Of a stretch of DNA of 32,000 bases, positions 12,303 to 29,573 are shown one piece after another. Location of the stretch: assembly GCF_007748075.1 (NCBI RefSeq), contig NZ_CP036280.1:1080001-1112000 (forward strand), given 5' to 3'. Below the pieces are notes generated by a model that was not told the origin of the DNA, did not search any database, and saw only the letters and a program-made list of their open reading frames with translations. Origin of the DNA: Mucisphaera calidilacus (GTDB taxonomy: Bacteria > Planctomycetota > Phycisphaerae > Phycisphaerales > Phycisphaeraceae). How positions within the stretch are numbered: position 1 is the stretch's first letter; each line of letters starts with the position of its first letter. The translations under genes were made by a program, and so were the position numbers.

Positions 12303-12910
12303 TAGTGTGGTCCAGACCGTTTTCGGGAGGGTTGCGCCGGCGGGGGTGGTCCATAATGTTGGGCCGTTGTCGATACACGACTTACGCATCGAGGCGAGGA
12401 GGGCAGAATCATGGTGCCAGCGTGGCTGACGGCCTTGTTGTTGATGCTTGGGGAGGCCTGGTCGGTGCGCCGAGACGCGCGACTGCGCTTTGTTCTGGCT
12501 TAAATCGAACTGCTCAAGGCCCGCGTGCCGGGCAACCGGGTGATCCTCTCGCCGGACGAGCGGTTGCTGCTGATCAAGCTGGGGTCGTCCGTAGGGCATG
12601 ACGTCCATGATCTCGTCGGGATCGTCAGTGTCAAGACCTACAAACGCTGGCTTCGTGATCAGCAGGGGGTAGAGCCCCCGGACAGGTTGGCCGGCCGCCC
12701 AGGATCACCGCTTCGCTGCGGGCGCACCAGTCGCTTGAGAACACACCGCCCGAGGATGTCGGCAAGCCGCCGCCGACCTCGGCGGGCTTGATTCGCCGCG
12801 AGCGTATCCTCGGCGGGCTTCTGAATCATGACTACCGAAAAGCAGCATGACTCACGATGAAAACGGGCAGTGCCCGACAATCTGGACCGGCCCCGCTGTG
12901 GACCAGGTCA
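12303..12910 (+). mobile_element. 608-bp IS-derived element, copy C, with decayed internally deleted transposase remnant
   Basis: Same ends as A/B/D/F. The interior is collinear with copy F but lacks about 140 bp of the left non-coding part. The transposase remnant carries TAA at 12501-12503 where copy F has CAA, and the downstream frame is shifted (ORF fragments 12525-12791). Confidence 0.85.
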
Positions 12911-13082: not shown

Positions 13083-14486
13083 ATGAAGACACTCCGACAC
13101 AAGATCGCACAAAGCATGACCCTGCTCGCAGTTGCCCTGACTCTGGTGGGCGCTGCCGGATGCGGTGCCCGGTCGAGCGAGGAAGGGGTCATGACCTTCA
13201 CGGACGATCAGTTCGAAGACCTGGTCCGCCGTTCATGGCAGTACGTTGCTATGTACAACGTGAACAACAAGGGCGCGATCCAATACGGAGGCTGGAACGT
13301 CGTCGATGTCGACACTCAGCTGAAGGACCACACGCTCCAGCTCATCGCCCGACCGAATAACGACTCGCTCTACATCACCTGCATGCTCGACCTGCGCATG
13401 GAGCCCGTCATCCTCGACATGCCGGCCTTTGAGTCGAAGTACGTGTCGCTCATGGTCACCGGCTATGACCACTACGTGAACATCCCTATGTCGACCCGGC
13501 AGGGTGATTTCAAAAAGCCTGAGACAATGCTCGTCTTCAGTGAGCGCACCGAAGGCTACGAGAAGGGCGAGGAGGTCGAGGGCGTCGACCGGTACTTCGA
13601 GGCGACCGGGGACTTCCTCTCGGCCGTCTTCCGCGTCATGCCGCACGCCAACGAGCCGGAGCGCTTCGAGCGCATCAAGGAGCAGATGCAGTCGGTGAGG
13701 CTGCTCACCCTGTCCGAACTCCGCGGCGAGGAGCCCGAGCCGATCGGCGACGTCGACTTCCCTGCGGTAGGCAAGACAGACCTCGACCTCTTCGGGAACA
13801 ACCTCCTCGAAGTCATGCAGTTCGTCTTCAACCACACGACCTTTGACCCAAACAACAAGCTCGATCAGCAACTGCTGGCCGCTTACGAGCCCCTGGGAGT
13901 CGAACCTGGCAAGATGTACGACGCAAAGCAGATCGCGAAGATCGACGGCAAGCGCGTCCGTAAGGTCGCCGAGCGCATCGAATCCGATGAGATGGCCAAG
14001 GCGAACCGGCTGGCGGCCAGCACCGACCTGTTCCAGCCCAAGGGCGACATGGCTCTCGATCTGTTGCTCTTCCAGTCCGTCTTCGGCCCTATCGGGCAAC
14101 CGGCGATCGAAGCCGTCTACCCCGCGGTCACGACGGCCGACGGCCAAGCCATGAACGCTCGGCACGATTACGTGATTCGGATGAGCAAGGATGACATGCC
14201 CCCGGCCAAGGCCTTCTGGTCCTGCACCCTCTACGACACAGAGAACGGGTTCTTCATCCCCAACGACCGCAAGAAGTACAGCGTCGGCGAGAACGGCGGC
14301 ATGAAGCTGGATGAGGACGGCGGCATCGAGATCCACATCGCTGCGAAGCGACCCGAGGGTGTGCCGGAGGAGAACTGGCTGCCGCTCAACTGCGGCGATT
14401 ACGACATCGACGTCATCCTGCGGCTCTATGTGCCGGACCTGGAGAAGTACAAGAACTGGAAACCGCCGACGGCAGAGAAACTCTGA
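13083..14486 (+). CDS. DUF1254/DUF1214 two-domain protein, probable lipoprotein
   Basis: 467 aa with signal and lipobox-like LVGAAGC. DUF1254-type RPNNDSLYITCMLDLRMEPVILDMPAFESKYVSLMVTGYDHYVN. DUF1214-type AFWSCTLYDTENGFFIPNDRKKYSVGE...NWLP...ILRLYVP. Confidence 0.85.
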   Translation: MKTLRHKIAQSMTLLAVALTLVGAAGCGARSSEEGVMTFTDDQFEDLVRRSWQYVAMYNVNNKGAIQYGGWNVVDVDTQLKDHTLQLIARPNNDSLYITCMLDLRMEPVILDMPAFESKYVSLMVTGYDHYVNIPMSTRQGDFKKPETMLVFSERTEGYEKGEEVEGVDRYFEATGDFLSAVFRVMPHANEPERFERIKEQMQSVRLLTLSELRGEEPEPIGDVDFPAVGKTDLDLFGNNLLEVMQFVFNHTTFDPNNKLDQQLLAAYEPLGVEPGKMYDAKQIAKIDGKRVRKVAERIESDEMAKANRLAASTDLFQPKGDMALDLLLFQSVFGPIGQPAIEAVYPAVTTADGQAMNARHDYVIRMSKDDMPPAKAFWSCTLYDTENGFFIPNDRKKYSVGENGGMKLDEDGGIEIHIAAKRPEGVPEENWLPLNCGDYDIDVILRLYVPDLEKYKNWKPPTAEKL

Positions 14487-14493
14487 ATCGCTG

Positions 14494-15987
14494 ATGAGGA
14501 CTCAGACTGTGAACAGCTCGTTGAAGACACTCACCCTTGTCCTCTCGCTGGCCGCCGGGCTTCTGACGCCCGGTCTCGCGCTGGCGCAGGCCGCCGAGCG
14601 CGTGGACCTTAACGACGAACAGATGGAGGAGCTGGTGGTGCGCTGCTACCAGTATGTCGCCATGTTCAACGTGAACAACAGGTTCGCGCTCGACGCGGAT
14701 AACCCCTTGAGCTCGGGCGGGTACAACCGGGTCAAAGCCAATACGGATCTGGCCGATCACACGGTGCAGGCCGTCGCACGCCCCAACAACGACACGCTCT
14801 ACGTGGTCGCCATGATCGACGTGACCGAAGAGCCGATCGTGATGGAGATGCCGGCCTTCGACTCAAAGTACGTGTCGCTGATGGTCACCGGCTACGACCA
14901 CTACGTGAACATCCCCATGTCGACGGGTGATGGTGACTTCGGTGAACCGTCGAACATCCTCTTCTACAGCCAACGCACGCCGGGCTATAGAGGTGAGCCG
15001 GTGGAAGGCGCGGACGAGGTGTTCGAAGTGACGGGCGACTTCGTCAGCGCCGTGCTGCGCGTCATGCCGCACGCGGCCGAGCCCGAGCGCCTCGAAGCCA
15101 ACCGCGCGGCCATGCGCAGCGTCGATGTGGAGCCGCTGTCGGAGTTCCTCGGCAAACGCCACGATGACGCGGGCTTCGTGCCGTGGGGCAGCCCCTCCGG
15201 TATCGGCAGGAGTCTGGACCTCAAGGAGGACTTGGCCCGCTTCCCTGAGTTTGGTTCCGACTTCGAGATCTTCGAGGACCGCTTCCTCGAGGTCATGCAG
15301 TTTGTCGTCAACCACACGACTTTCGATCCCGGCGACGAGCTCGACACCGCGCTGCTTCGGATTCTGAAGCCGCTCGGCGTCGAGCCTGGCAAGGCGTTCG
15401 ATCCGGATGGCGTGGCGGAGATCGACGGGGCGGCCCTGCGCGAAGCCGCCGAGCGCTTCGCGTCCGCGAGCCTGGCGAAGATGGGCGATCCTGAGTTCCT
15501 CGCCGAGAACCTGACCAGGACCTTCAAGCCCAAAGGCGAGATTGACGTCGAGTTGCTGGCCATCCAGTCGGTGATCGGGCCGATCGGACAGCCCTCACAG
15601 GAAGCGCTCTATCCGCCCGTGAACACCGAAGACGGCAAACCGATGAACGCGATGTCCGACTACGAGATCGTGATGACGGCCGAAGAGCTGCCGCCGGTCA
15701 ACGCTTTCTGGTCGGCCACACTCTACGAAAACGATACCGGCTTCTTCATCCCGAACGACCGGTTCAAGTACTCCGTGGGCGAGAACGCGGGCTTCAAGCT
15801 CGATGAGGACGGCGGCATCCGTATCGTCATCGCGGCCGAGCAGCCCGAGGGGGTGCCAACAGAAAACTGGCTGCCCATCAACCGGGAAGACATGGACCTC
15901 GACATCATCATGCGCCTCTACGCACCCGACCTTGAACGCTACGAGAGCTGGCGTGCGCCGAAGGCGAAGAAAATCTCCGCGGAGTGA
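14494..15987 (+). CDS. DUF1254/DUF1214 two-domain protein, tandem paralogue
   Basis: ORF 14311-15987; start at the ATG at 14494 (MRTQTVNSSLKTLTLVLSLAAGLLTPGLALAQA, signal peptide), 8 nt after the upstream stop. It shares long identical stretches with the 13083-14486 product (KYVSLMVTGYDHYVNIPMST, LEVMQFV.NHTTFDP, AFWS.TLYE/D..GFFIPNDR.KYSVGEN). Confidence 0.85.
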   Translation: MRTQTVNSSLKTLTLVLSLAAGLLTPGLALAQAAERVDLNDEQMEELVVRCYQYVAMFNVNNRFALDADNPLSSGGYNRVKANTDLADHTVQAVARPNNDTLYVVAMIDVTEEPIVMEMPAFDSKYVSLMVTGYDHYVNIPMSTGDGDFGEPSNILFYSQRTPGYRGEPVEGADEVFEVTGDFVSAVLRVMPHAAEPERLEANRAAMRSVDVEPLSEFLGKRHDDAGFVPWGSPSGIGRSLDLKEDLARFPEFGSDFEIFEDRFLEVMQFVVNHTTFDPGDELDTALLRILKPLGVEPGKAFDPDGVAEIDGAALREAAERFASASLAKMGDPEFLAENLTRTFKPKGEIDVELLAIQSVIGPIGQPSQEALYPPVNTEDGKPMNAMSDYEIVMTAEELPPVNAFWSATLYENDTGFFIPNDRFKYSVGENAGFKLDEDGGIRIVIAAEQPEGVPTENWLPINREDMDLDIIMRLYAPDLERYESWRAPKAKKISAE

Positions 15988-15989: not shown

Positions 15990-16240
15990 TAGCGTGGTCC
16001 AGACCGCTTTCGGGGATGCTGCGCCGACAATCTTGATGCTGTCCCATCCAATCAGTCATTATGTCTCTTAGGCTCTAAGAGATATTCTGCGTGTGCCGCC
16101 ACCGGCATCGGTAGGCTCGATCCGTCGAGAGCGTATACTCGGCGGACTTCTGAATCATGACTACCGAAAAGCAGCATGATTCACGATGAAAACGGGCAGT
16201 GCCCGACAATCTGGACCGGCCCCGGCTGTGGGCCAGGTCA
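15990..16240 (+). mobile_element. Short (251 bp) non-autonomous IS-derived element, copy D
   Basis: TAGCGTGGTCCAGACCGCTTTCGGGG... to ...CTGGACCGGCCCCGGCTGTGGGCCAGGTCA. Collinear with copies A/B and the most diverged of the short copies. It starts 3 nt after the stop of the DUF1254/1214 paralogue. Confidence 0.85.
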
Positions 16241-16344
16241 GCCTCCCCGAACAAAGTCCGAATCATCATCGAAAACAAGCATCAATTCTGGATCAGGATC
16301 CGGGGAGAGGCGCAAGCTCAAGCAGTGAATACAAGGGGAATAGC

Positions 16345-17268
16345 ATGTACAGATTTACTCACTACGACCTGCTGTTTTTTGGTCTTTCATTATTTCTCTG
16401 CATTGGGGCTATATGTCTGGCCTCAAACGTGAGTCGGGATCAGGCACGTGGATCTACCTGCGTGTCGAATCTCCGGCAACTTGTCCATGCTGATCTGGTA
16501 TATGCAAATGACTATGATGGCCAGTTCTTCTCGGATTGGAGTTACAAGAAGCAGGCCAAATCTCCTCCTCGCCAGTACTGGTGTGACAAGAGGCGATTAG
16601 GGCAGTATATACAACAGGATAGAGTCGATTGGATTATTGAAGACTCACGTAACTTCACAGAAGGGCAAGACAAGCCATTACAGGCAATCAATGGAATCAT
16701 GAGGTGCCCGGCTTCTCTTGAAGATGAGGCGCGTTCGTATTCTCAGTCTCATTGGGCAAACGGACTTGGGCTCTTTACTAAATGGATTGGTGCTGGCGAG
16801 ATATCGAGAGCTTATCCTTTAGGCAAGCATTTCAATACTCAGAGTGTGAAGAATCCGAGCAAGACCATTCTTCTGGTAGAGTCTCTTGCCAAAACAGAGA
16901 TCATTCAGGACAAGTATTGGGGGACTGAAGAGGTTGGAGCATTTAAACTTCCAAGCTTGCGATGCGCTCCTCAGAAGCGAGTATGGGAGAGTCCTGTGAA
17001 TGTGTTCTCCCCGACTGAAGGCCGATACGTAAATGCAGCCTCTATTACATGGGATGTCAATTACTCTAATCATCGCACACGCAATAATATTACATATGAC
17101 CCTCGCCGAAATCCTGGTCCATTAGGGGTAGTCAGTATTGGATTTGTAGACGGGCACGTACAGTCTGTGTCCAGTGAGGCGATCTGGAGTCCTGACACTT
17201 TCAGATCAGTCTATAATATTCTGTGGTCAGATAACGACAAGGATATTGATAGTGAGTATTTTAAATAG
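16345..17268 (+). CDS. Degenerate prepilin-type/DUF1559-like (H-X9-DG-type) protein, AT-rich
   Basis: ORF 16186-17268; start at the ATG at 16345 (AAGGGGA RBS 6 nt upstream) because the upstream 53 codons are element-D sequence. N-terminus MYRFTHYDLLFFGLSLFLCIGAICLA...CVSNLRQL resembles the GFTLIELLVV...C.SNLKQ pseudopilin leader. The C-terminus has IGFVDGHVQSVS, like the H-X9-DG tail. Confidence 0.65.
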   Translation: MYRFTHYDLLFFGLSLFLCIGAICLASNVSRDQARGSTCVSNLRQLVHADLVYANDYDGQFFSDWSYKKQAKSPPRQYWCDKRRLGQYIQQDRVDWIIEDSRNFTEGQDKPLQAINGIMRCPASLEDEARSYSQSHWANGLGLFTKWIGAGEISRAYPLGKHFNTQSVKNPSKTILLVESLAKTEIIQDKYWGTEEVGAFKLPSLRCAPQKRVWESPVNVFSPTEGRYVNAASITWDVNYSNHRTRNNITYDPRRNPGPLGVVSIGFVDGHVQSVSSEAIWSPDTFRSVYNILWSDNDKDIDSEYFK

Positions 17269-17328
17269 AATCGCAAGGTCAACACGAACAAAGTGACCTG
17301 CCCCCGGTTGTTGCGCCAGCCGTAACGC

Positions 17329-17535
17329 TTACCACTGGCTGATCTCCAGGGGTTCCAGTGCTGACCGTAGCGTAGCGGAGGGCGGCTCTGGAACCAAGGT
17401 CTCTGGTGCCGGCGGGCGGTAGCCCAGCGACGAATGCGGCCGGATCGTGTTGTAGTGAATCCGCCAACGCTCGATCGCCTGAGCGACCCACTCGCAACCG
17501 GAACGATTGAACAAAAACGTGAACTGATCGGCATT
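17329..17535 (-). pseudogene. 3' fragment of an IS3-family transposase (OrfB/rve C-terminus)
   Basis: Minus-strand translation ..FTFLFNRSGCEWVAQAIERWRIHYNTIRPHSSLGYRPPAPE.. is the characteristic end of IS3-type integrase-core transposases. No upstream catalytic region or IS ends are present. Confidence 0.65.
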
Positions 17536-17614
17536 TACATCAAAGAGATAAAGGCTGATCCAGATACCAAAAGCGTCTCAATCAGCCTTTACCCGGCCTT
17601 GTTCAGACCGTTAA

Positions 17615-17741
17615 TAGTGTGGTCCAGACCGTTTTCGGGAGGGTTGCGCCGACATTCCTGATGCTGTCCCAGTCAATCAGTCATTTTGTGTCTTAGGTTC
17701 TAAGAGATACCCTGAGTTCGCTGACTGCGCGAGGAGGCGGG
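17615..17741 (+). mobile_element. Left end (about 127 bp) of the IS-derived element family, unit E
   Basis: TAGTGTGGTCCAGACCGTTTTCGGGAGGGTTGCGCCGACATTCCTGATGCTGTCCCAGTCAATCAGTCATTTTGTGTCTTAGGTTCTAAGAGATA... is collinear with 29645-29771 of copy F up to ..CTGACTGCGCGAGGAGGCGGG. Similarity then stops. Confidence 0.75.
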
Positions 17742-17827
17742 CCCCAGCGCGGGCAATGTGCCATGAGTTGGTGCTCGTCAGGGGGTTATTCTACCTGCAC
17801 CTGCCCGAATACGGTAACCGCCCGGGT

Positions 17828-19399
17828 TCAAGCGGCTCCGAGGCTCAGCACCATCGACACACCAACTCCCGCCGCACCGATCAGCGCGAGGACGTAAACC
17901 GCCAATCGGGGCATCTGCCCGTCGTTCTCCATCGCGCGGCCGAACATGAAAAACACGAGCGGGTGCACCAGGAAGGGCATCGCGAAGATGAAAGCGATCA
18001 GGGCCTGCGACTCCGGCCCGGCCATGCCGCCCTGGATCGCGGCGAACAGCCCGAAGTGTGACATCGCCGAACTGGTCGCCATCATCGCGTTCGCTACCGA
18101 CATGTTGGCGACAGCCAACAGCAGCAGCCCACCGAACACCGCAGTGAGTTGCCAACCGAAGCTGAACTGCATCAGCGCCTTGACCTCGCGGGCGTCATCG
18201 CCCCTGGCCGACGCAAGGTTGCGCAGGGCATAGAGGGTCAGCCCGAGCCCCAACACCGCTACGATCACGGAGGGCACCATCAGCAGCCGACCCTGTTCCA
18301 TACTCACCGCGAGGATGGAGAAGACGAAGATGTGGCCGAAGAACGGAATATTGATCATGATCGGGGCGCGGCGTGACGCGGTCTCGCCCAGGTCGCCCGC
18401 TGTGCAGGCGCCGGTGAGCCCCGCGTGCGAGAGCGCGCCCGCCATACCCGGGCCCAGGTTCCACGTCGCGGCCGTCCGGCCGAAGAAAACGAGCAGCGCG
18501 ATCCCCCCGAACATCCAGAATACCTGACCGAAAAACCCGTATGCCATCACGGCGTCCATCCCCGACAGCGCGAAAGCCTCGCCGATCCGCGATCCGCCGA
18601 TGATGAAGTTCGCCGCGAGCACCACAGGGATCCCGGCGAAGAGCAGGCATCGCACCGCCGGGCCGTGCTCCCAGCGGTACAGCAGCGCCCCAACACCCGC
18701 CGCGATGAGCATCACGAAGAAGATCTGGGGCAACGCGATCAACGGACTGACCCAGACCGCGATCAGGTACCCCGCCCCGAGCACGGCCATGATGGCGATG
18801 ATCTCTGCGACACCCTTGTGCAAGTAGGTCCGGGTGTTCGCGATCGTCGCTTTGTAGTCGATCAGGATCACCGCGATCACCAGCCCCATGTACGCGATCA
18901 GCGGGTAGTAGCGACCCAGCGACGTATCGGGCACGGTATCCAGAATGACCGCGGTGCCGGCCCCGATGCCGAGGAGCATCAAAAACGCCCGGGCGATGAA
19001 GATCACCTGGGTGCGTCCCGTACCCAGAAACACTTGCTCCGTCGCGTACGACACGCTCTGGTCTTGCAGGACTTCCTCACCCAAGAAGATTCGCCGCAGC
19101 TCCTGCCCGCCCACGAAGAAGGTGGCCGTCAGGGCGACGATGGTGGTCTGCGCTACCATGCCCAGCATGGGGAAGTCACTCAGCCCCGGTTCTGAAACGC
19201 CCGTGGCCACCATGAGGTAGCCCATGGCCAGGCCGAACACCACGATGATCAAGATGGCCGAATACCGGGTCCCCGCCACCACCGCTCTGGCCACCAGCAC
19301 CATCGGGATCACAAAGAACACCGACAACCAAAACTGATTGAACAGGTGCTGATGGGCTATTTCCTGCATCAGCTGTTCAGGCGCGATCGATCCGAGCAT
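17828..19399 (-). CDS. Polytopic membrane protein (about 12-14 TM), transporter-like, family not recognised
   Basis: ORF 17828-19441; start at the ATG at 19397-19399 (MLGSIAPEQLMQEI...) preceded by AAGGAG at a 7-nt spacing. The protein is hydrophobic throughout and its GC is like the host genome. It lies between the left and right ends of element unit E, on the opposite strand. Confidence 0.8.
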   Translation of the reverse strand: MLGSIAPEQLMQEIAHQHLFNQFWLSVFFVIPMVLVARAVVAGTRYSAILIIVVFGLAMGYLMVATGVSEPGLSDFPMLGMVAQTTIVALTATFFVGGQELRRIFLGEEVLQDQSVSYATEQVFLGTGRTQVIFIARAFLMLLGIGAGTAVILDTVPDTSLGRYYPLIAYMGLVIAVILIDYKATIANTRTYLHKGVAEIIAIMAVLGAGYLIAVWVSPLIALPQIFFVMLIAAGVGALLYRWEHGPAVRCLLFAGIPVVLAANFIIGGSRIGEAFALSGMDAVMAYGFFGQVFWMFGGIALLVFFGRTAATWNLGPGMAGALSHAGLTGACTAGDLGETASRRAPIMINIPFFGHIFVFSILAVSMEQGRLLMVPSVIVAVLGLGLTLYALRNLASARGDDAREVKALMQFSFGWQLTAVFGGLLLLAVANMSVANAMMATSSAMSHFGLFAAIQGGMAGPESQALIAFIFAMPFLVHPLVFFMFGRAMENDGQMPRLAVYVLALIGAAGVGVSMVLSLGAA

Positions 19400-19460
19400 T
19401 GCAACGCTCCTTGGAAGCTTGCCCCAGTGTAGCGGATGCAATACTCCTTAATCGCCCAAG

Positions 19461-19576: not shown

Positions 19577-19923
19577 GCCCTGGCAGGAATCATCTCAGAT
19601 CTCTCACTTCGCCTGGATCAGGTTCTGGGTTGCAGGTCAATCCTCTCACAGCAGGTGGACCAATGATCCCGAGGGGTCAGTTGTTGGGTGATTGGGTCAT
19701 GAGCGTTTACATATTCCTTATCGCTAGATGTTCCTTTGAGCTGTAAAGGCCTGGTTGGTCATCCAAACCACACAAAAGAGATCAAAAATTCGATTGATCG
19801 GAATAAAGGTTTACTGCCTCGAAGAAGTTCGTTAACCTAGGGGCATATTCTTTGGGTGGTTCATGCGTTGATGACTTCCTTTTCTGGGGCAGTGCCCGGT
19901 CAAGATTCCGAAGGGATATCGCT

Positions 19924-22900
19924 ATGTCATTGTTCTTGTGGATTCAGCGTCGCCTGGCATCTCAGTTCACTTCTGCTAACGATGAGCCCTCACCTTCTTC
20001 TGGACTAGAGACACTAGAGCCTCGTGTTTTACTTTCGGCTACACCGCCCGGGTTCTCTGGAGAGGGCTTGATGCCTCTCGGCTTCACCGCAAGCAGTCAG
20101 CTAGTCCTGTCTGACGGATTTAATCTGACCGGTACCAATGAGGATGACCTGCTCACATCACTTCGTACGACGAGTGGAAAGCGGAATTATTCATTTCTTG
20201 GAGGTGCAGGCGATGATGTCTTTATCATCCACAACACTAAGGGACATTTGTCTGGCGGAGCCGGCTACGACCGAGCCTACACAACAAACTCGAATCTAAC
20301 ACTGGACAGCGTTGAAGAGTTCTGGGTCCGTGATGACCAGAAAGTTCAATGGGTCCTGAGTGGAGGCTCGGCAATATCAGCAGATCGGATTGGTGAGACA
20401 CAATCATTTCACGAGATCAACGAGCGACTTAGCAGCAGACACCACGCCACTGGATCAGTACCTATTGCCACGTTGCCAACGCCGATTGCTTCATCGAGCG
20501 TATTGACTAGTGATGCTGATACCGAAATAGCCTTGTCGGGAGGGCTAAGTCTTGAGACATTAATCGTTCCTTCTCCATCAGATAATTCTTTCGCCTCGCC
20601 TCAGAATTTCTCGACTCTTAACCTGCCTGATAACTCTGATCTCCTTGTCTCTACGAACACCGGCGATGTTAACGATGACGGTGCGACTGATGCTCTGGAC
20701 ATCGATCTGCTGCTAAGTCTTCGCGGTACACCGGTAGAAGTCAGTCCTTCTGCAGATCTCTTTCCAGACGGTGTTCTCGATCAGCGAGATGTGGATCACC
20801 TAATATGGGGGATTTTGGGGACCGAGTATGGTGACTCGAATCTAGATGGCCGTGTGGATTTGCTCGATCTCGGGATTCTCTCAGCTAGCTTTAATGATGT
20901 TGGTGGGTGGGCGAATGGGGACTATACCGGAGAGGGTGGTATAGACTTGTTGGATCTCGGCATACAGGCTGCGGTATTCAATTTCGACGCTACCCTTCCC
21001 CGTAACGTCATAGGAACCAGTAGCGACGACATCCTCTACGGTCGCAGAGGCGATGACACACTCAACGGCTACGCCGGCGATGACTGGCTCTGGGGCGGCC
21101 AGGGCAATGACCTGCTCTACGGCGGCCCCGGCGACGACATCATGCACGGCAACCAGGGCAACAACACCTTCATTGGAGGAACCGGCTACGACCTCGCCGA
21201 CCAGGACGGAAAGTCCGACGTCCGTGCAACCGTAGGCGACCTCTCCGTCTCAGCAAGCAGCTCCGCAGACATCGGCTTCGGATACACCGTCTCGCTCGAA
21301 ACCGACGCCGCTTCAACCGGCCTGCGCTGGTGGCGAATCGACTGGGGCGACGGTTCGGATCCCGACGGCGACGGGATCGTCGGCGAAATCCTCGACATCA
21401 GCACAACCGAAGCCAACCACGTCTACCTCACAGGGCCCATGGCCACTCAGGTCACTGTCAGCGCACTCAGCGCAGACACTGAAACTGACGCTGTCATCAC
21501 ACCCATCAGCGTTCTCGACACAGCAGAAGGCCTGTCACTCCAAACCCCAGCGAATCTGATCGCCGTTGGTGTCGCACCGAACCAGATCTTCCTGAACTGG
21601 GACGACAACGAGACCGCCGAAGACGGCTATCAAATCAAAGACTTAGCCAATAACGAGACATTGTTCTTACCTAGAGACCACAGCAGCTACACCTGGACAA
21701 CTCCCAATCAGCACTACACCACCACCTTCGAGGTCTTGGCCTACTTCGAGAACGAAGACGGCACGGTAACCTACTCAGCACCTGCCGTTACAGACGCCGC
21801 GACCACATTGCCCCTGGCGCCGGTCAATGTGACAGGTATTGGCATAACATCGGAACGACTAGGTGTTTACTGGACTAATCTTGCCGATGCATCAGAGCGA
21901 GACAGAACTGGATTTATAATCGAATATACGCCATATGTAGAAGGCAGTGAGGCTGACTGGACCCGGGCAAGCACCCGTACTGAGAGTGATGAGGACGCTA
22001 ATTACTATACAATCAGTGATTTAAGTCCGGAACAAGACTACTGGGTTCGTGTGATTGCTGAAAATGACCTTGGCGCAACTGTATCGCTGGCAGCAATCGT
22101 AGCTACACGTGAGATCCCATTGCCTCCTACAGATTTATCCGCGACAGCACTCAGCAATACGCATGTCAGGCTCAATTGGACGAATAACAGCGAATATATT
22201 GATATGCATGAGGTGCAGTGGAGAGTGGCCGGCTCTCAAGAATGGGATGATTCCAGTAAGATCAAAATCCGGGCTGCTAATAGCGCGGTTGTTGATGGGC
22301 TTGATTCAAATACTACTTACGAGTTCAGAATTATTCCTTGGTACCTGTATACAGAAAGTAATATAACGTTAAATGATAACATTTACAATACCATACTAGA
22401 AACAACCCAAAACAGAGAGCTGGCAGATATTAAAACATACGCTGTCGCCGATCGTGCAACTTCGCGTATTAAAATAAAGTGGATCAATGAAGTAGACCCA
22501 GAAGTCGAGGATCGGGCCAGAATCATAGTTAAGTACAAGCCAGCAGATCAGGCTGATTGGGCTTTGGCTGAGCAGCGAACTGAAAGGAGTAGTTGTACTG
22601 AGACAACACTCCGCGGCCTTGCCAGCGGTACAGAGTATGACATTAGAATAGCCAGTGAGAATAGCTCGGGTATACGATCAGCGTGGCTACAGTTTAAGAC
22701 GTCAACACTGCCAGATTCTCAAGCATCAACAGGCCCTCTATCTCCGCCAAGTGCATTATATGCTATTCCAACAAAAGGTGACTCATTAGACCCTGATGGT
22801 GACTCATTAGGCCCTGATATCGAGCTGCATTGGCTCAATGCTCTTCCTGCTTCTGCGACAGGTCGAACCGGATTCAGGATAGAATATAAACCAGCCAGCA

Positions 22901-25900
22901 TTGAATCCTGGGATGAAACGCCCTTTGAGTCAATAGATACAAATTCTAAAGACTCTACCTTTTACGCACTCATTAGAAATAATATATTTAGCTCTGATAT
23001 TCTTGAATACGCAACAGAATACGATATTCGCATCTTTTCTAAAGGCCCGGGAGGCATTCTCTCAGAAGAATCAATCGAACTATCGTCGACAACATTCGTT
23101 CGCCCGGAAGCCCCAGTGAATCTTACAGCTACACCGCTTGCAAATAATGTAATACGGTGTACCTGGGAACATGATAGTGATGATTTATACAAATATAGTG
23201 TAAAAGGTAACTCGCTCTATGGAATAAGTACAAATACGAGGGCATACACACATATAATAGACCAATATCATGCGACAGAGGTGCGCGTCGTAGCGACTGA
23301 CTTGTCTACTGGGGTCTCTTCAGAATCTGTCAGCGTGAGCCTCGAAATACCCGTAGACCCGCTGCCTGTACCCCAGAATCTTGTTGCTGTTCCAATCGAC
23401 TCAAATAGCGTGCGTGTCGCCTGGCAGGATCAGGCCGACGATGAGTACTATAGCCGGCGTGGATCATATATTCAATACGTGCCGGTCGGACCAGATGGAG
23501 TAATTGACTGGGATAGTGACGAGGCTTACGAATCTCAGGATAATGATGAACGCAGTTTCAGAACAAGTAATAACGCAGGAGACGCAAGGCATGGTCTTAG
23601 TGTGATTATTACGGACCTGGACGCCGACACTGAGTACGCAGTGCGCGTCCGCACTCTGTCGTCCGGACCCGACACGTCAACAACAAATGGAAATGAAGTA
23701 CTATCCGAATATTCTGAACCTGTGATCGTAAAGACGACAGGCGAAGATCTTCATAGTGCAACCATCGACTCTGTACGCACGCTTCCTGGCGGCCACTGGC
23801 AAATCAACTGGTCCTACGACGACCAGAGCGCCCTCCCGCCCGACGGATACGAACTAGAACTCCAAAGCATCGGCTCAAACGGCCCCGAGGCCATCCCCGG
23901 CCACACCTACAATCTCCCTTACGGAATCAACGAATTCTTCATTGAACAGCCGCCAGCCGACGCCATCTTGATCGCTATCACGCCCACGCGAGGCAGCGAC
24001 ACCGGCACCACCGCCATCTCGTTCGCACCTGATCCCGCCACACCCCTTGTCGTTCCCTCACCCCAACAACTCCACCTCGCAGAACAGCCAGGAGATCCCA
24101 CCCAACTCCGCGTCGTCTTCTCCTCAGTACGCGACGCCGACGGCTACCGCCTCACCATCGAAGAGGCTGGCACCCTCACCCAAATACGCGAGATCCATCA
24201 ATCCGCCGAAGCCTACCTCAGCGAAACCCTACAACTCAATAACCCTAACGCCGACATCACCGTCACCATCTACTCAAAGCGCGGCGAGGACGTGACCCCC
24301 ACAGGCCGGTCAGCCAACCGACTCGCGCCGTCCACGCCCGCGCAGTTCACCGAGAACCTCTTCCTCGAAACCGTCTCATGGACACCCGTCACAGGTAGCG
24401 ACCACCTCTTGTTCCTCAACGATGGCATCCGCCATCAATACCTCGGCACCTTCACCGACAGCACCAACAATTACACACTCCCCGACGTCTCCGCAGACAA
24501 CCTTCAGGAAATCGCGCTGGTCACCCACACACCAGACAGCGGACCATCCCATCAAGCCACGGCCGATATCTACGTCACCAGTGCTCTCGGGGACAGCGAT
24601 ACCGACGGCCTCACCAACGGCCAGGAGTTCACAACCTACGGCACCGACCCATTCCAGCCCGATACCGACAACGACCTGCTCAACGACGGCGACGAAGTCC
24701 TTACCTACGCCACCAACCCACTCGATCCCGACTCGGACGACGATAACCTAGACGACGGCCTCGAAGTCCTCGTCCACAGCACCAACCCCAAAGCCCAGGA
24801 CACCGACAGCGACGGCCTCTCGGATGGCGCTGAAGTCCTCACCCACCTGTCCGACCCAACAAGCCAGCATTCAGATTCAGACGGTATCTCGGACGGCGAA
24901 GAAGTCCTCGTCCACGGAACCAAGCCCACCAATCCCGACACCGATGAAGACACCCTCACCGACGATCGCGAAATCTTTGCCGAACTCACCAACCCGCTCA
25001 GCTCTGACACCGACGGCGACGGACTCGATGACGCCTGGGAGGTCAAGTACAAGGACGTCGACGACATCGACCCAATCAATCACTACACCGACTCCGACAG
25101 CAACCCGGATGGCGATCTCCTGAACACCCTTCAGGAATACGCAGTAGGCACCGACCCCGGAGTCGCCGACGAACACCATTTCTGGACCAAACCCTCGCAG
25201 TCGCCCGACGCATCCCTCGATGCCGACCGCGACGGCATCCTCGACATCATCGAAGCCGACCTCGGCACCAATCCCAACACACGAGATACCGATGGTGATG
25301 GCCTCACTGACGGCTTCGAACTCCAGCACGGCTTCGACCCCAACAACCCCGACGAAGAAGGCAACCAAATCCTCGACGGACAGGACGACGCCGACGACGA
25401 CACCCTCAACAACAGCCAGGAGCAAAGCAACGGCACCAACCCATCCAACCCCGATACCGATGGCGACGGCACCAACGACAACGACGAAATCGCCAACGGC
25501 TCCGACCCCACCGACGCCTCCGATGGCGGCCAGCCCGTCCCCACCGCCTACCGCAACTCGATCCGCTTCACCCTCCACGACTCGGACAGTTCAGGCACAC
25601 ACTGGGATGAAGCATACGGCAGCCGCGAACTCATCATCAACGACCGCATCCGTCTCACCGTCAACCACAATGATGGCATCATCGAACACCAAGAATACTG
25701 GTACCACGCCGATGCCGACGAAGAAATCCAACTCCAATTCACCCATACCTGGAACCACGATCCCGACCTCGACTATCACTACCGGTACACCAACCTACCC
25801 GAAGGCGTCTCAGATCGTGGCTGGGGCTCGGGCTGGGGCTGGGGCTGGGGCGGGGGCTGGGGCTGGGGCCGAATCTACGTGAGCAGCAACACGCCCTTCT

Positions 25901-28659
25901 GGTCAGACGACCCCAACTACCTGCTCACCACAACCGTATGGCCCGCTGGCGATTGGGACTGGTCATACGAAAGGATTGATTCACCCCCGCCCGACATCAA
26001 CTGGTCCGGTTCGGCCACCATCCACACAGGAGGGCTCGACCTTGAAATCACCGACCTTCCCAACGACCAGGAAGACGACCCGCAGCAGGCACCCATCCTC
26101 CCCGTCTCCTCCGCCGATGCCGACAACGACGACATCCCCGACGCCCTCGACATCAACGACACCACACGCCCGCTCCTCCCCGTCGAACTCACCCTCTCCA
26201 GCAACTACAACGCCGGCTGGTCAAGCGGGATCGACCCCGCCAACACCATGATCACCTTCCGCTACCAGGGACCCGACCAGACCGAAATCAACAACCTCGC
26301 CTCACTCACCCCCACCACGCTCCAATCCCAAGGCGAACCAGCCACCACACCAGGCCTCCGCCTCTGGCAGGATGACGCATCCTCACCATCTCTCTACCTA
26401 GCCCCCGACACACCCATCTCCGCTCAAGACCTCGGCCTCTCACCCGGCAACACCGTCACTCTCTGGATCGAAGCCTCCCCCGGCTCCAACGCCAACCAGC
26501 CCTACGCCCTCGCTGCCGAGATGAACCTCACCGACACCAACCAAACCAATTACACGCGCCTCATCGCCGACACCGTCCTCGCCCGCCCACTTGCGGTCGA
26601 CCTCGACATCGATAGCGACAACACCGCGCTCTACGACCTTCCCGAAGGCTCCGAGTCGGAAGACGAAATTGAGGCCTCCAAACCCAAAGTCATCCTCGTC
26701 AACCGTGACGACGACGATAACGATCAAATCCCCGACTACGCCGATGGCTACGGTGCTTTCTCAGACAACCCCAGCAGCGTCTACAACGCCGATGAGCAGT
26801 TTGTTCCGGTCACCCTCAAGCTACCTGTTGTTCAAGACACCCAAGCCAGCCTCGTGTTTCACTACTCAGCAGACGACCCCGCGTCGGTCACCCGCAGCAG
26901 CCTCAACATCGAAGAAATCGCGAGCTACGCAGACCCCACAGCCTACGCCTACAGCGCCGCCGGCCAAGGCCTTCTCCGGCTATGGACCAAGCCGGGTGAA
27001 TACACAAGACTTGCAGACCCCATCTCCCAAGGCGGTGACTTTGTCCCCGCAGGAACAACCATCTCACTCGACGACCTCACCATCGATGCCCAAGGCACGG
27101 TCACCCTCTATCTCGAAGCCGTCTACGGCTCCGCAACACCCACAAATATCACGGTTGATTACACAGTCGACTCCAAGACCGCCTCGGATGTCATCGCCGT
27201 CCTCCCACTGGCTCCAGACATCAGCATCAGCAGTGATGTCCAACTCGAAGGCTATACCCTCATCACAGGCTCCGGTTCCATCACCGGAACCTCAGGCAAC
27301 GACATCATCTTTGGCTCAGACTCTGCCGACTTGATCGACGCCGGATCAGGTGACGACATCATCATCGCCGGCTCAGGCGACGACGAGATCTACAGCGGGA
27401 ACGGCTCAGACATCATCTACCCAGGCCGAGGCGACGACCTCATCGACGTCGATAACGCCGACACGCTCCCGATCGCTTCACCCGAAGCAGAGAACACCAT
27501 CATCTACCGCGACAAGATCGTGGTCTCCTACACCAACGACAACAACCTCATGCTCCTCGGCCAGGCCCTAGCCACCTACGAACTGCTCTTCGGCCCGGAC
27601 GATCCCTGGCTGGAGGCATTCGCAGGCATCGGCGGAACCATTCAGGCTCGCTCCGAGACCATCTGGACCTTCAGCGATGCGTACGTCGACAATGTCGACG
27701 GCAAGCCGGTCTTGACTCTCGAACTGGAAAACAGCGATCTCGATGACCCGTTCAAGATGGCCACCGCCATGAGACAGGCAATCCTCAGCTACGCCGGCTC
27801 CAGCCCCGTTCTTTTCAATGGCGGCTACCGCAAGTTCCAGGCCTACTTCACGGACAACCTCCAACTCTTCGACCTCGCCAAACAACGTAGCTACACAGAC
27901 GAACAAGATGAGATCAATACCTACCAGCAACTCCAGCAGCTGGGCATCGCTCAGGCAGCGGAGGCCGCAGGCCTCCTCGCAACACTTTACGCCTCAGGCG
28001 TCACCATCATCAGTGAAGCGGCAGATCTGGTCTTCGTGCTCCACGATCTGGCTACCAGCGAATCCGGCGAAGAACAAGTGATCGCGATGGCAGGCCTTCT
28101 GCCGTTTATCCCCGTAGGAGCTACAGGCGGCGTCGCTAAAATCATCCTGAGATCGCCCGTAGGTGAACTCCTGGTCTACACGACCGGCAAAGTCCTATAC
28201 CTCCCCAACACCACGGCGCAGCTCGGGATTAAACTCACCCGAGCAACACTGTCTGAGGGCGCCGAGAAAATCCGCTTCGTCGACGACCCCACAGGCATCT
28301 CTGTACCAATCTTTGGTCGAGGCCATGCTACAGGAGCCCTGAACCACGACAAAGCCACGGATAGATTAGCCGAGCAGTTGGCTGCCACCGGGAACTACGA
28401 ATACATCACCACGAATCTGACCTGGAGAACAACGCTCAATGACGCCGCTGGCAACCCATTAACAGATTCACCTCGACGACCCGATGTGATCGCCGTTCGC
28501 AGAGACGGCAGGGTTGAAGCTTACGAAATACCATCTGAATTAGATGACCCAACACTTCTATATAACCGTATGCAAGAGATAATGCAGACCTTACCTGATG
28601 AACGAAGAACTGATCCGATAATTATTTCTATTACCGATATCCTAGGCACACCCGAATGA
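19924..28659 (+). CDS. Giant (2911 aa) multidomain secreted/surface protein: LEPRVLLSA N-motif, dockerin-like, RTX, PKD-like, FN3 array, TSP3-type Ca repeats, (GW)n, RTX, unassigned C-terminal module
   Basis: ORF 19852-28659 (the track start is a TTG). I prefer the ATG at 19924 (MSLFLWIQRRLASQF) with AAGGGA 7 nt upstream. Domain calls come from reading the translation; see the sub-features below. Confidence 0.9.
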   Translation: MSLFLWIQRRLASQFTSANDEPSPSSGLETLEPRVLLSATPPGFSGEGLMPLGFTASSQLVLSDGFNLTGTNEDDLLTSLRTTSGKRNYSFLGGAGDDVFIIHNTKGHLSGGAGYDRAYTTNSNLTLDSVEEFWVRDDQKVQWVLSGGSAISADRIGETQSFHEINERLSSRHHATGSVPIATLPTPIASSSVLTSDADTEIALSGGLSLETLIVPSPSDNSFASPQNFSTLNLPDNSDLLVSTNTGDVNDDGATDALDIDLLLSLRGTPVEVSPSADLFPDGVLDQRDVDHLIWGILGTEYGDSNLDGRVDLLDLGILSASFNDVGGWANGDYTGEGGIDLLDLGIQAAVFNFDATLPRNVIGTSSDDILYGRRGDDTLNGYAGDDWLWGGQGNDLLYGGPGDDIMHGNQGNNTFIGGTGYDLADQDGKSDVRATVGDLSVSASSSADIGFGYTVSLETDAASTGLRWWRIDWGDGSDPDGDGIVGEILDISTTEANHVYLTGPMATQVTVSALSADTETDAVITPISVLDTAEGLSLQTPANLIAVGVAPNQIFLNWDDNETAEDGYQIKDLANNETLFLPRDHSSYTWTTPNQHYTTTFEVLAYFENEDGTVTYSAPAVTDAATTLPLAPVNVTGIGITSERLGVYWTNLADASERDRTGFIIEYTPYVEGSEADWTRASTRTESDEDANYYTISDLSPEQDYWVRVIAENDLGATVSLAAIVATREIPLPPTDLSATALSNTHVRLNWTNNSEYIDMHEVQWRVAGSQEWDDSSKIKIRAANSAVVDGLDSNTTYEFRIIPWYLYTESNITLNDNIYNTILETTQNRELADIKTYAVADRATSRIKIKWINEVDPEVEDRARIIVKYKPADQADWALAEQRTERSSCTETTLRGLASGTEYDIRIASENSSGIRSAWLQFKTSTLPDSQASTGPLSPPSALYAIPTKGDSLDPDGDSLGPDIELHWLNALPASATGRTGFRIEYKPASIESWDETPFESIDTNSKDSTFYALIRNNIFSSDILEYATEYDIRIFSKGPGGILSEESIELSSTTFVRPEAPVNLTATPLANNVIRCTWEHDSDDLYKYSVKGNSLYGISTNTRAYTHIIDQYHATEVRVVATDLSTGVSSESVSVSLEIPVDPLPVPQNLVAVPIDSNSVRVAWQDQADDEYYSRRGSYIQYVPVGPDGVIDWDSDEAYESQDNDERSFRTSNNAGDARHGLSVIITDLDADTEYAVRVRTLSSGPDTSTTNGNEVLSEYSEPVIVKTTGEDLHSATIDSVRTLPGGHWQINWSYDDQSALPPDGYELELQSIGSNGPEAIPGHTYNLPYGINEFFIEQPPADAILIAITPTRGSDTGTTAISFAPDPATPLVVPSPQQLHLAEQPGDPTQLRVVFSSVRDADGYRLTIEEAGTLTQIREIHQSAEAYLSETLQLNNPNADITVTIYSKRGEDVTPTGRSANRLAPSTPAQFTENLFLETVSWTPVTGSDHLLFLNDGIRHQYLGTFTDSTNNYTLPDVSADNLQEIALVTHTPDSGPSHQATADIYVTSALGDSDTDGLTNGQEFTTYGTDPFQPDTDNDLLNDGDEVLTYATNPLDPDSDDDNLDDGLEVLVHSTNPKAQDTDSDGLSDGAEVLTHLSDPTSQHSDSDGISDGEEVLVHGTKPTNPDTDEDTLTDDREIFAELTNPLSSDTDGDGLDDAWEVKYKDVDDIDPINHYTDSDSNPDGDLLNTLQEYAVGTDPGVADEHHFWTKPSQSPDASLDADRDGILDIIEADLGTNPNTRDTDGDGLTDGFELQHGFDPNNPDEEGNQILDGQDDADDDTLNNSQEQSNGTNPSNPDTDGDGTNDNDEIANGSDPTDASDGGQPVPTAYRNSIRFTLHDSDSSGTHWDEAYGSRELIINDRIRLTVNHNDGIIEHQEYWYHADADEEIQLQFTHTWNHDPDLDYHYRYTNLPEGVSDRGWGSGWGWGWGGGWGWGRIYVSSNTPFWSDDPNYLLTTTVWPAGDWDWSYERIDSPPPDINWSGSATIHTGGLDLEITDLPNDQEDDPQQAPILPVSSADADNDDIPDALDINDTTRPLLPVELTLSSNYNAGWSSGIDPANTMITFRYQGPDQTEINNLASLTPTTLQSQGEPATTPGLRLWQDDASSPSLYLAPDTPISAQDLGLSPGNTVTLWIEASPGSNANQPYALAAEMNLTDTNQTNYTRLIADTVLARPLAVDLDIDSDNTALYDLPEGSESEDEIEASKPKVILVNRDDDDNDQIPDYADGYGAFSDNPSSVYNADEQFVPVTLKLPVVQDTQASLVFHYSADDPASVTRSSLNIEEIASYADPTAYAYSAAGQGLLRLWTKPGEYTRLADPISQGGDFVPAGTTISLDDLTIDAQGTVTLYLEAVYGSATPTNITVDYTVDSKTASDVIAVLPLAPDISISSDVQLEGYTLITGSGSITGTSGNDIIFGSDSADLIDAGSGDDIIIAGSGDDEIYSGNGSDIIYPGRGDDLIDVDNADTLPIASPEAENTIIYRDKIVVSYTNDNNLMLLGQALATYELLFGPDDPWLEAFAGIGGTIQARSETIWTFSDAYVDNVDGKPVLTLELENSDLDDPFKMATAMRQAILSYAGSSPVLFNGGYRKFQAYFTDNLQLFDLAKQRSYTDEQDEINTYQQLQQLGIAQAAEAAGLLATLYASGVTIISEAADLVFVLHDLATSESGEEQVIAMAGLLPFIPVGATGGVAKIILRSPVGELLVYTTGKVLYLPNTTAQLGIKLTRATLSEGAEKIRFVDDPTGISVPIFGRGHATGALNHDKATDRLAEQLAATGNYEYITTNLTWRTTLNDAAGNPLTDSPRRPDVIAVRRDGRVEAYEIPSELDDPTLLYNRMQEIMQTLPDERRTDPIIISITDILGTPE
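20662..20982 (+). other. Dockerin-like Ca-binding repeat module within the giant protein
   Basis: GDVNDDGATDALDIDLLL...DLFPDGVLDQRDVDHLIWGILGTEYGDSNLDGRVDLLDLGILSASFNDVGGWANGDYTGEGGIDLLDLGIQAAVFN. A closely similar module sits before the PEP-CTERM tail of the GH30 gene at 30332-32000. Confidence 0.7.
21013..21192 (+). other. RTX / hemolysin-type calcium-binding nonapeptide repeats (block 1)
   Basis: GTSSDDILYGRRGDDTLNGYAGDDWLWGGQGNDLLYGGPGDDIMHGNQGNNTFIGGTGYD shows GGxGxD periodicity. Confidence 0.8.
21547..24580 (+). other. Array of about 10 fibronectin type III-like domains
   Basis: Recurrent ~90-120-aa units open with P.NL.A/V....V.L.W and close with Y.(F/V)R(V/I), e.g. PANLIAVGVAPNQIFLNWDD, PTDLSATALSNTHVRLNWTN..TTYEFRII, PQNLVAVPIDSNSVRVAWQD..TEYAVRVRT. 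Confidence 0.7.
24592..25530 (+). other. About 14 thrombospondin type 3-like (bacterial TSP3) Ca-binding repeats
   Basis: DSDTDGLTNGQEF..DPFQPDTDNDLLNDGDEV..NPLDPDSDDDNLDDGLEV..DTDSDGLSDGAEV..DSDGISDGEEV..DTDGDGLDDAWE..DTDGDGLTDGFE..DTDGDGTNDNDE. Confidence 0.8.
25818..25869 (+). repeat. In-frame hexanucleotide microsatellite (GGCTGG)n encoding (GW)n
   Basis: GGCTGGGGCTCGGGCTGGGGCTGGGGCTGGGGCGGGGGCTGGGGCTGGGGC encodes GWGSGWGWGWGGGWGWG. It contains eight consecutive G3-5 tracts with 1-3 nt loops on the coding strand. Confidence 0.9.
27268..27450 (+). other. RTX / hemolysin-type calcium-binding repeats (block 2)
   Basis: GSGSITGTSGNDIIFGSDSADLIDAGSGDDIIIAGSGDDEIYSGNGSDIIYPGRGDDLIDV. Confidence 0.8.
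28315..28656 (+). other. Extreme C-terminal module with PD-(D/E)xK-like motif arrangement (candidate nuclease/toxin tip)
   Basis: GRGHATGALNHDKATDRLAEQLAATGNYEYITTNL...RRPDVIAVRRDGRVEAYEIPSE. The PD codons are at 28480-28485 and E-A-Y-E at 28516-28527. This is a motif-level resemblance only, with no canonical Lys after the acidic residue. Confidence 0.35.
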
Positions 28660-29573
28660 ATCGCGATCATTTGAATAATTATGCTCACGCGTCATACGGA
28701 TTGAGGTGTACACGTGAACATATACCTCAATTTGTAAATACTGTACTATCCTTCGGGAGTGATAATAATCTTGGCTTGACTCATTTCCAGATAGATGCCC
28801 CAGGCTTTGCAAATAAACCACTGACCCTTAAACGCAAGCTATCAGAGCTCCGGGAAATAGCCCCAGAAGATTGCCGGTGTGTGAGCTTCTACCGGATGCT
28901 CAAAGGATCCAGGCAATGGTTAGGCGGTGACCAAATTTACATTAGCACACGGCTAATGCCAGAACTCCCATCTTCAAATGAATTCGCCTGTCACATTGGT
29001 GAAGATGTTGAACTGGATATGGTCAATACAATTAAATTATTACTATCTAGATTACTCCCAATACTCCGCCCCACTTATGCAATTAGTTACTATCTTAGTG
29101 TAAAGCGAAGACCATCACTTTACGCCATGCCAATAAGAGCAGGACTTCCATTACGTCATCAATGTGATTTTGAACAACTATATGAATGTGACCGCAGCGA
29201 AGCATTCTTCTTGAATAATAGTAGACAGCTCTACAACCACGGCATCCTCCGAGATGTCTACCCCGAGAACTTCCTAACCCATCACCAGCTCGACGCCGAC
29301 GTGCTCGGCCAGACCCTCCGGGACTGGATCACATCGAGCCCCGACCACGGCGTCCTCGAACACTACTGCCAAGACATCTACCGCTGGTCAGTCCCCGAAG
29401 ACAAGATCCAACCGATCACGGACGTCATGTGGAAAGCCGGCCGCCTCCTCACCCGTGACGAAGCCGAGGAATACGCCTATCAACTCGGCTTGGCTGAACG
29501 CCCACCCTACCGCCAGCCCGGCTGGCACCTCAAAGACCCCAGACCCGTCCCAGGCGACCCGTCCACATGGTGA
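28656..29573 (+). CDS. Hypothetical 305-aa protein translationally coupled to the giant gene (candidate immunity/partner protein)
   Basis: The ATG at 28656-28658 overlaps the giant gene's TGA (28657-28659) in an ATGA arrangement. There is no signal peptide or TM segment, and I recognise no family. The first ~190 codons are AT-rich and the last ~115 are GC-rich. Confidence 0.7.
   Translation: MNRDHLNNYAHASYGLRCTREHIPQFVNTVLSFGSDNNLGLTHFQIDAPGFANKPLTLKRKLSELREIAPEDCRCVSFYRMLKGSRQWLGGDQIYISTRLMPELPSSNEFACHIGEDVELDMVNTIKLLLSRLLPILRPTYAISYYLSVKRRPSLYAMPIRAGLPLRHQCDFEQLYECDRSEAFFLNNSRQLYNHGILRDVYPENFLTHHQLDADVLGQTLRDWITSSPDHGVLEHYCQDIYRWSVPEDKIQPITDVMWKAGRLLTRDEAEEYAYQLGLAERPPYRQPGWHLKDPRPVPGDPSTW

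Follow-up and report, generated by a model that had tools for sequence, protein, structure and literature searches.

Two kinds of described toxin system are among the closest to the locus considered here. Tox-REase systems comprise a C-terminal nuclease-fold toxin on varied carriers (Rhs, HINT and the PVC/extracellular contractile injection system, or eCIS, metallopeptidase), with an immunity gene directly downstream (PMC3482391). PoNe is a PD-(D/E)xK toxin found with several secretion systems and was defined through its linked immunity family (Jana et al. 2019, PMC6688995). The present locus lies in a stretch of 32,000 nucleotides from the planctomycete Mucisphaera calidilacus (contig NZ_CP036280.1, positions 1,080,001–1,112,000; hereafter the window), in which the gene for a giant repeat protein ends in a toxin-like domain and overlaps a gene for a 305-residue partner. 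Judging from sequence comparisons, the two very probably form a polymorphic toxin–immunity pair. The kind of system is a known one; the toxin family and its immunity counterpart are both new, and the carrier is of a type that has not yet been described as a toxin chassis.

The giant carrier gene occupies a single very long open reading frame (ORF) on the + strand, as do all features of the locus given below. The frame is open from a TTG at 19852 to 28659; translation probably begins at the ATG at 19924, for a protein of 2,911 residues (MSLFLWIQRRL…; 19924–28659, stop codon TGA at 28657–28659). From the N- to the C-terminus the protein consists of a LEPR-XLL leader, RTX repeats, an array of FN3 domains, bacterial TSP3 repeats, a unique region of about 470 residues, a further RTX block, a pre-toxin module and the toxin domain, the FN3, bacterial TSP3 and RTX repeats being identified by a Pfam scan. 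The leader motif, LETLEPRVLLSATPPG (residues 28–43; 20005–20052), scores 25.5 bits against NCBIfam model NF012209, for which the cut-off is 17; a first-pass annotation of the stretch had proposed a 'PVC-type leader', and the leader that is present is this catalogued LEPR-XLL domain. The last block of RTX nonapeptides (GTSGNDIIFG…GRGDDLIDV; residues 2455–2509; 27286–27450) directly precedes the C-terminal unit, and the sequence downstream of it is non-repetitive, as the same annotation had stated. It had also treated the tip (27451–28655) as one unit. We find two separable modules, of which only the last ~130 residues constitute a mobile toxin-like domain. The C-terminal unit, which is conserved among relatives, runs from the RTX block through a pre-toxin module of about 245 residues (27478–28218) to the terminal toxin-like domain of about 130 residues (28258–28656; hidden Markov model, HMM, E = 2.1e-40). 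The partner gene, which encodes the predicted cognate immunity protein, follows at 28656–29573 (HMM E = 5.5e-69). Its ATG (28656–28658) and the TGA of the giant gene share the tetranucleotide ATGA at 28656–28659, so that the overlap reported earlier is confirmed, and this arrangement implies translational coupling. The junction of the two genes and the sequence that follows them yielded no terminator-like site and, on the + strand, no promoter-like site.

Relatives were obtained from an exhaustive phmmer search of 1.84 billion representative proteins, with the tip and the partner joined end to end as the query. The search returned 570 relatives at E ≤ 1e-3, including 115 at E ≤ 1e-10; the match mapping described below was drawn from the best 150 of the 570. 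The mapped matches follow three patterns: the whole C-terminal ~360 residues recur at the ends of proteins of 362–3,241 residues, the last ~115–130 residues alone end many other proteins of 115–3,344 residues, and the partner falls in a family of ~265-residue proteins. An exhaustive HMMER search was required because word-indexed protein searches came up empty with the tip and with the partner, and found only two proteins with the domain alignment. A genome scan with a narrower alignment gave four loci. Neither the 401-residue tip nor the 305-residue partner matched Pfam, NCBIfam, PADLOC, PHROGs or the sequences in the PDB, and the lack of matches in PADLOC and PHROGs gives no hint of an origin in phages or in phage defence. 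The names returned by protein cluster look-ups were uninformative. In the PDB, sequence searches with profiles were as unproductive as those with single proteins, a weak match to the N-terminus of EfeB (E = 0.005) being regarded as chance.

The terminal domain is mobile and sits at toxin positions on varied carriers. It is found on RTX giants with cadherin, FG-GAP and dockerin domains (P0003, P0004, P0006 and P0051) and at the C-terminus of a protein of 3,344 residues with PA14, Big_9, FG-GAP, YD-shell and RHS repeats (P0071). On the L003 contig it is preceded, near the end of the protein, by Rhs-core-like sequence, and in six proteins (P0152, P0059, P0111, P0132, P0139 and P0142) a Pretoxin-HINT (PT-HINT) domain stops just upstream of it. 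One further carrier, P0075, is an eCIS_core protein, eCIS_core being the 'PVC-metallopeptidase' of Zhang et al. (PMC3482391). A conjugative Kosakonia plasmid has a T6SS-type locus that encodes, in order, VgrG, a DcrB-related protein, an Rhs protein ending in the terminal domain and a 263-residue hypothetical protein of the partner family; nothing resembling the Kosakonia tip and immunity DNA was seen in Escherichia coli genomes, and tblastn with a partner homologue gave no plasmid match. The extreme C-terminus of the M. calidilacus giant is, in short, a domain that is also borne by Rhs proteins. Both the carriers and the C-terminal placement match those expected for polymorphic toxin tips (PMC3482391). 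Where one body with different tips might be looked for, we see the converse, namely the same tip and immunity gene on different bodies.

Linkage was assessed with three local HMMs, one each for the terminal domain, the pre-toxin module and the partner, which were run over the six-frame ORFs of every fetched locus. A partner-family gene lies immediately downstream in 16 of the 17 distinct toxin-domain genes, a proportion comparable to that of PoNe, of which about 90% of the genes adjoin a PoNi gene (PMC6688995). In the reverse test, a toxin domain was found just upstream in all four of the loci that had been picked via the partner (P0017, P0016, P0034 and P0021). Two toxin-domain genes each are present in L001 and L004 (the same as L017), and one each in the window, L002, L003, L005, L006, L007 (the same as L008), L009, L010, L011, L012, L013 (the same as L014), L016 and L018. 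The named sources of the linked loci are Planctomycetota (Planctopirus, with P. hydrillae at L002, and Phycisphaerales), an Aliidongia metagenome-assembled genome (Alphaproteobacteria) and the Kosakonia plasmid (Gammaproteobacteria), and the others are unclassified metagenome contigs. The four-base overlap of the window also occurs between the called genes of L005 and L017. The polymorphic toxin–immunity layout put forward in the first-pass annotation is supported by this linkage and by the variety of the carriers.

The partner had been described as a cytoplasmic protein of no recognizable family, and the searches agree: it has no database match, as noted above, and no hydrophobic leader (the highest Kyte–Doolittle mean over 19 residues is 1.06). 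Nor did the family as a whole, represented by the window copy and 59 relatives, show a relative in Pfam or the PDB, and the lack of a matching Pfam model places the partner outside the Imm families that Pfam holds. An alignment of 60 family members (A3) contains a conserved core, G-x-LRDVYP-x-NFL, and the invariant residues Tyr141, Arg199, Trp224, Gly232 and Trp244. These do not constitute a typical catalytic set and there is no leader, so that on the simplest reading of the sequence the partner looks like a cytoplasmic binder rather than an enzyme. We note two members of unusual length: P0109 (533 residues), which has two partner domains in tandem, and P0034 (451 residues; L013:1689–3044), which has ~160 additional C-terminal residues beyond the usual partner length.

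Compared with the window copies, the homologous partners are 21–31% identical and the toxin domains 31–41%, the partner being the more divergent of the two. Over 12 cognate pairs toxin-domain identity correlates with partner identity (Mantel r = 0.57, p = 0.0017), a co-variation that fits co-evolving cognate pairs. Tandem arrays are present in L004/L017 (2718–9619) and L001 (898–6219), where the main toxin gene and its immunity gene are followed by a short second toxin gene and a second immunity gene. The short gene encodes 465 residues comprising RTX repeats, the pre-toxin module and the toxin domain, and a frameshift splits the second immunity gene of L001. No such additional short cassette lies downstream of the main gene in the window. 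In L005 the gene after the 3,241-residue giant P0003 encodes a 436-residue protein (P0018; 11646–12956) that unites a partner-family domain with a toxin domain at its C-terminus. Of the four invariant residues described below, this toxin-domain copy keeps only one: the histidine is lost, the glutamate is replaced by an aspartate and the serine by a tryptophan. P0018 may combine an immunity protein with a toxin-like domain that is no longer active. No hidden degenerate domain of this sort follows the partner gene in the window.

AlphaFold2 gave an unusable model for the 401-residue tip as a single sequence, with a predicted local distance difference test (pLDDT) score of 38. For the 132-residue domain with a 57-sequence alignment (A1) the pLDDT was 95.5 and the predicted TM score (pTM) 0.89. 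The predicted elements are, in order, an N-terminal hairpin, a helix (positions 29–43), strands at 46–51, 76–80 and 85–89, a helix (97–108) and a short final strand; in the model this is the order of the α-β-β-β-α-β core of PD-(D/E)xK nucleases. A Foldseek comparison with the PDB gave nothing at E ≤ 1e-3. The best matches were nevertheless mostly to the PD-(D/E)xK superfamily. They comprise the VRR-NUC protein 4qbn (probability 0.89), cap-snatching endonucleases of phenuiviruses, SduA, NucS, VC1899, TnsA, Card1, DrdV, a DUF820 nuclease and 9y1l, a putative restriction endonuclease. Against viral models the best E value was 7.6e-4, with many nucleases and L-protein endonuclease regions among the matches. 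The window tip matches nothing in Pfam at E ≤ 1; when the 57 members were compared with Pfam one by one, the sub-threshold matches included Hjc (six members), VRR_NUC (two), Uma2 (two), MmcB-like (two), SduA_C and AHJR-like. The restriction-endonuclease fold suggested in the first-pass annotation is thereby favoured by the topology of the model and by the kind of Foldseek and Pfam matches, but their significance is marginal. On this modelling we regard the toxin domain as probably a divergent PD-(D/E)xK-type metal-dependent nuclease.

Four residues are invariant in all 57 homologous domains. His2808 (domain position 29; 28345–28347) is the first residue of helix α1 and belongs to an NHD rather than a GH motif, and Asp2854 (position 75; 28483–28485) lies in an RPD motif just before strand β2. 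The E-I-P-S motif (28525–28536) contributes Glu2868 (position 89) at the end of β3 and Ser2871 (position 92) after it; the serine may do no more than cap the helix that comes next (S-x-x-D). The motifs that had been quoted previously, GHATGALNHDKATDRLAEQL, RRPDVIAV and RVEAYEIPS, are all present, and the invariance of the histidine, aspartate, glutamate and serine places them beyond chance. It had also been remarked that the canonical lysine is missing. This is correct, but it is no defect: at the corresponding position 91 the family has R, I, A, Q, E, K, P and other residues, so that the proline found in the window is normal for the family. A basic residue is present instead 14 residues after the glutamate, on helix α2, where Arg2882 of the window copy (position 103; 28567–28569) is arginine in 39 and lysine in 13 of the 57 members (arginine or lysine in 52 of 57). 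The window copy retains the histidine, aspartate, glutamate and serine together with Arg2882.

This arrangement resembles that of certain viral endonucleases. The site of the influenza PA-N endonuclease comprises H41, E80, D108, E119 and K134, and the bunyaviral L endonucleases have a similar layout of a histidine, a PD motif, an acidic residue and a helix lysine; these enzymes cut RNA. The present domain shares several of these features: its first helix bears a histidine, a PD motif is present, the strand after that motif carries an acidic residue, and ~14–15 residues further on the following helix supplies a basic one. The match is, however, at the level of the fold only (E = 0.09–0.3 against the PDB; TM scores of 0.33–0.35), with no sequence similarity and a different biology.

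Comparison with the established toxin families places the domain outside each of them. None of the ten published motif sets, Tox-REase-1 to Tox-REase-10, fits the H, PD and E-φ-x-S motifs of the window (PMC3482391), and no Tox-REase appears among the Pfam families listed for the 57 members. PoNe retains D-(D/E)xK and PoNi has DUF1911/DUF1910 (PMC6688995), whereas here the lysine is variable and the partner has no Pfam domain. The solved PT1 and PT7 toxins were reported as new topologies by Nachmias et al., and nothing in the PDB sequence or Foldseek searches pointed to either. As regards contact-dependent inhibition, the likeness to CdiA-CT lies in a small C-terminal nuclease on a very long surface filament, with a pre-toxin or entry region before it and a specific immunity gene after it. 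Two of the CdiA-CT toxins, EC869 o11 (a DNase) and Bp1026b (a tRNase), are reportedly of the PD-(D/E)xK type, in work that is said to be that of Morse and colleagues from 2012. Neither of these two structures appears in the first 50 Foldseek matches from the PDB, Pfam detects no two-partner secretion or haemagglutinin-repeat domain in the giant, there is no VENN motif and no cdiB was found among the scanned neighbours.

Eighteen sequences went into the local HMM that recognizes the pre-toxin module (E = 4.5e-70 for the window copy); in Pfam and NCBIfam the module has no match. Its conserved motifs are Y..LYG..DPWL, SEGaD.V and LPFvP, and it has one stretch of borderline hydrophobicity (maximum 19-residue Kyte–Doolittle mean 1.78). 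In four related carriers (P0003, P0004, P0006 and P0051) an RTX block stands shortly before the module, as it does in the window. Among the matches listed, the module is confined to RTX-type carriers, short cassette proteins and carriers whose N-terminal parts were unscanned. Every protein with the module among the best 150 of the 570 matches also bears the terminal domain; no different tip, and hence no exchange of tips at the pre-toxin junction, was seen among them.

The carrier itself shares its N-terminal motif and its calcium-binding RTX blocks with the LEPR-XLL giants of Planctomycetota (NF012209) and with RTX proteins. A literature search of partial coverage found no paper tying such LEPR-XLL/RTX giants to a toxin tip and an immunity gene. 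One protein in the collection, P0001, is a fragment 100% identical to the giant. Exact-sequence look-ups of P0001 and of P0002, a relative of the partner, retrieved no contig. We also note an odd Trp-Gly run, GWGSGWGWGWGGGWGWG, within the giant's unique body region (~26240–26300 of the window, near residues 2130–2150 counted from the TTG).

The base composition of the locus is uneven. The G+C content of third codon positions (GC3) drops from 0.75 (unique body region) and 0.74 (pre-toxin module) to 0.48 in the toxin domain; in the partner gene it is 0.31–0.42 over the first 600 nucleotides and 0.6–0.8 over the last 300–450. The result is a low-GC3 island at 28300–29250 that covers the core of the toxin domain and the first two thirds of the partner gene. 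These ~950 nucleotides may be the footprint of a toxin core and most of an immunity gene acquired from a donor of lower G+C content, the composition being suggestive only, since the FN3 region of the giant is likewise low (0.47). P0002 (141 residues) is 84% identical to the C-terminal half of the partner only and has a different N-terminus. Together with the partial extent of the low GC3, this pattern hints at recombination within the immunity gene.

Several observations weigh against the interpretation of the locus as a toxin–immunity pair with a nuclease tip. A metagenome scan with body residues 2050–2520 (counted from the TTG at 19852) matched RTX only and revealed no homologue of the body, and hence no alternative tips on it. 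The N-terminus of the giant lacks a classical signal peptide, and the 32-kb window contains no secretion-system genes. The one exception to the linkage is the toxin-domain gene of L003 (2–1948), which is followed by an unrelated ORF of 196 residues; this may encode an alternative immunity family, or the usual partner may have been lost. The co-variation of toxin and partner could be explained by shared descent alone. With regard to the proposed active site, the canonical (D/E)xK lysine is absent, the candidacy of Arg2882 as its stand-in is inferred from its position in the model, and position 53 is a leucine in the window copy and an arginine in 50 of the 57 members.

Some of these observations can be accommodated by other readings. 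The pair might be a toxin and its immunity protein in which the toxin is not a nuclease, the histidine, aspartate, glutamate and serine acting on another substrate, such as the phosphodiester of a nucleotide or lipid, or the domain working by binding alone. The marginal Foldseek scores, the missing lysine and the want of a Pfam nuclease match above threshold would agree with this, as would the invariant serine, which is unusual in the PD-(D/E)xK superfamily. We nevertheless consider it unlikely: the topology, with the aspartate and the glutamate on β2 and β3, fits a nuclease core, the top Foldseek matches are mostly nucleases, the weak Pfam matches common to at least two members include several nuclease families, and the serine could be a mere helix cap. 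It is also conceivable that the locus is a decayed remnant, a pseudo-toxin on a carrier beside an orphan immunity gene. The leucine at position 53, the compositional signs of past recombination and the existence of degenerate toxin-like domains in the family (P0018) point that way, but the same leucine occurs in six other members, the four invariant residues and Arg2882 are intact, and both reading frames are open and coupled, all of which make decay very improbable.

A different kind of explanation takes the giant to be a calcium-binding adhesin or surface protein, with a C-terminal unit for export or anchoring and a partner that acts as a chaperone or secretion adaptor. In its favour, adhesins typically carry FN3, TSP3 and RTX repeats, no function is known for the pre-toxin module, and alternative tips on the giant's body were not found. 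However, the terminal domain and the partner travel together across Rhs, PT-HINT and eCIS_core carriers that have different export machines, and an adaptor should track the export machine, not the tip. In the Kosakonia plasmid, moreover, the chaperone or adaptor slot is read as being filled by the DcrB-related gene between VgrG and Rhs, and the partner-family gene stands downstream of Rhs. We give this explanation only a very small chance. In our view, a toxin–immunity pair with a nuclease-like tip is the interpretation most consistent with the data described above.

If the terminal domain is such a nuclease, its active site would comprise His2808 of helix α1, Asp2854 of the PD motif before β2 and Glu2868 at the end of β3, and Arg2882 of the next helix would replace the canonical lysine. 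After export, and upon contact with a competitor, the C-terminal domain would enter the target cell and cleave nucleic acid, either DNA or RNA; the pre-toxin module could assist its translocation or release. The cytoplasmic 305-residue partner would be co-produced with the toxin by way of the ATGA overlap, and would bind and block the toxin domain inside the producing cell. As to export, no ABC, MFP or TolC transporter genes are present within the 32-kb window, though RTX repeats occur near the C-terminus of the giant. A more far-reaching proposal, which we advance tentatively and regard as possible but doubtful, is that the LEPR-XLL giant represents a planctomycete type of contact-dependent delivery that relies neither on type V, VI or VII secretion nor on the eCIS, with the pre-toxin module as a new translocation or release domain, the tip as an H-D-E nuclease (with an arginine or lysine of the helix) and the ~265-residue partner family as a new immunity fold.

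Elsewhere in the window lie genes for a sulfatase together with its maturase, a dockerin-bearing GH30 enzyme, an ankyrin protein, a chemoreceptor, a ZIP transporter and two DUF1254/DUF1214 proteins. Scans of the window with Rfam and for tRNA genes found nothing. Two stretches are low in G+C. The first, at 10500–12500 (0.46–0.49, compared with ~0.6 around it), contains the ankyrin-repeat gene (11489–12244, − strand) and an ORF of 161 residues without a Pfam match (10816–11301, − strand), and may be an acquired island. The second, at 16000–19441 (~0.49), contains an ORF of 360 residues (16186–17268, + strand), and an ORF of 537 residues (17828–19441, − strand) lies just upstream of the giant gene; neither ORF matched Pfam, NCBIfam or PADLOC. 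Between these stretches, at 13083–15987, are two adjacent paralogous genes, each with DUF1254 and DUF1214. Their ORFs overlap by ~175 nucleotides, from which it follows that the second gene probably starts later than listed.

Nuclease-tipped polymorphic toxins are already well known, and no concept is overturned by the locus described here. What the comparison defines is two uncatalogued families, a toxin-like domain of ~130 residues and a partner of ~265 residues, both of which are labelled hypothetical in current annotation because they are absent from Pfam, NCBIfam, PADLOC and PHROGs. It also adds a variant of the nuclease fold that is without the canonical lysine. The linkage between the two families would allow many Rhs, HINT, eCIS and planctomycetal giant proteins to be annotated as effectors. 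For the Planctomycetota, it offers a testable role in antagonism for at least some of the LEPR-XLL/RTX giants, proteins that are poorly understood in both their function and their export.

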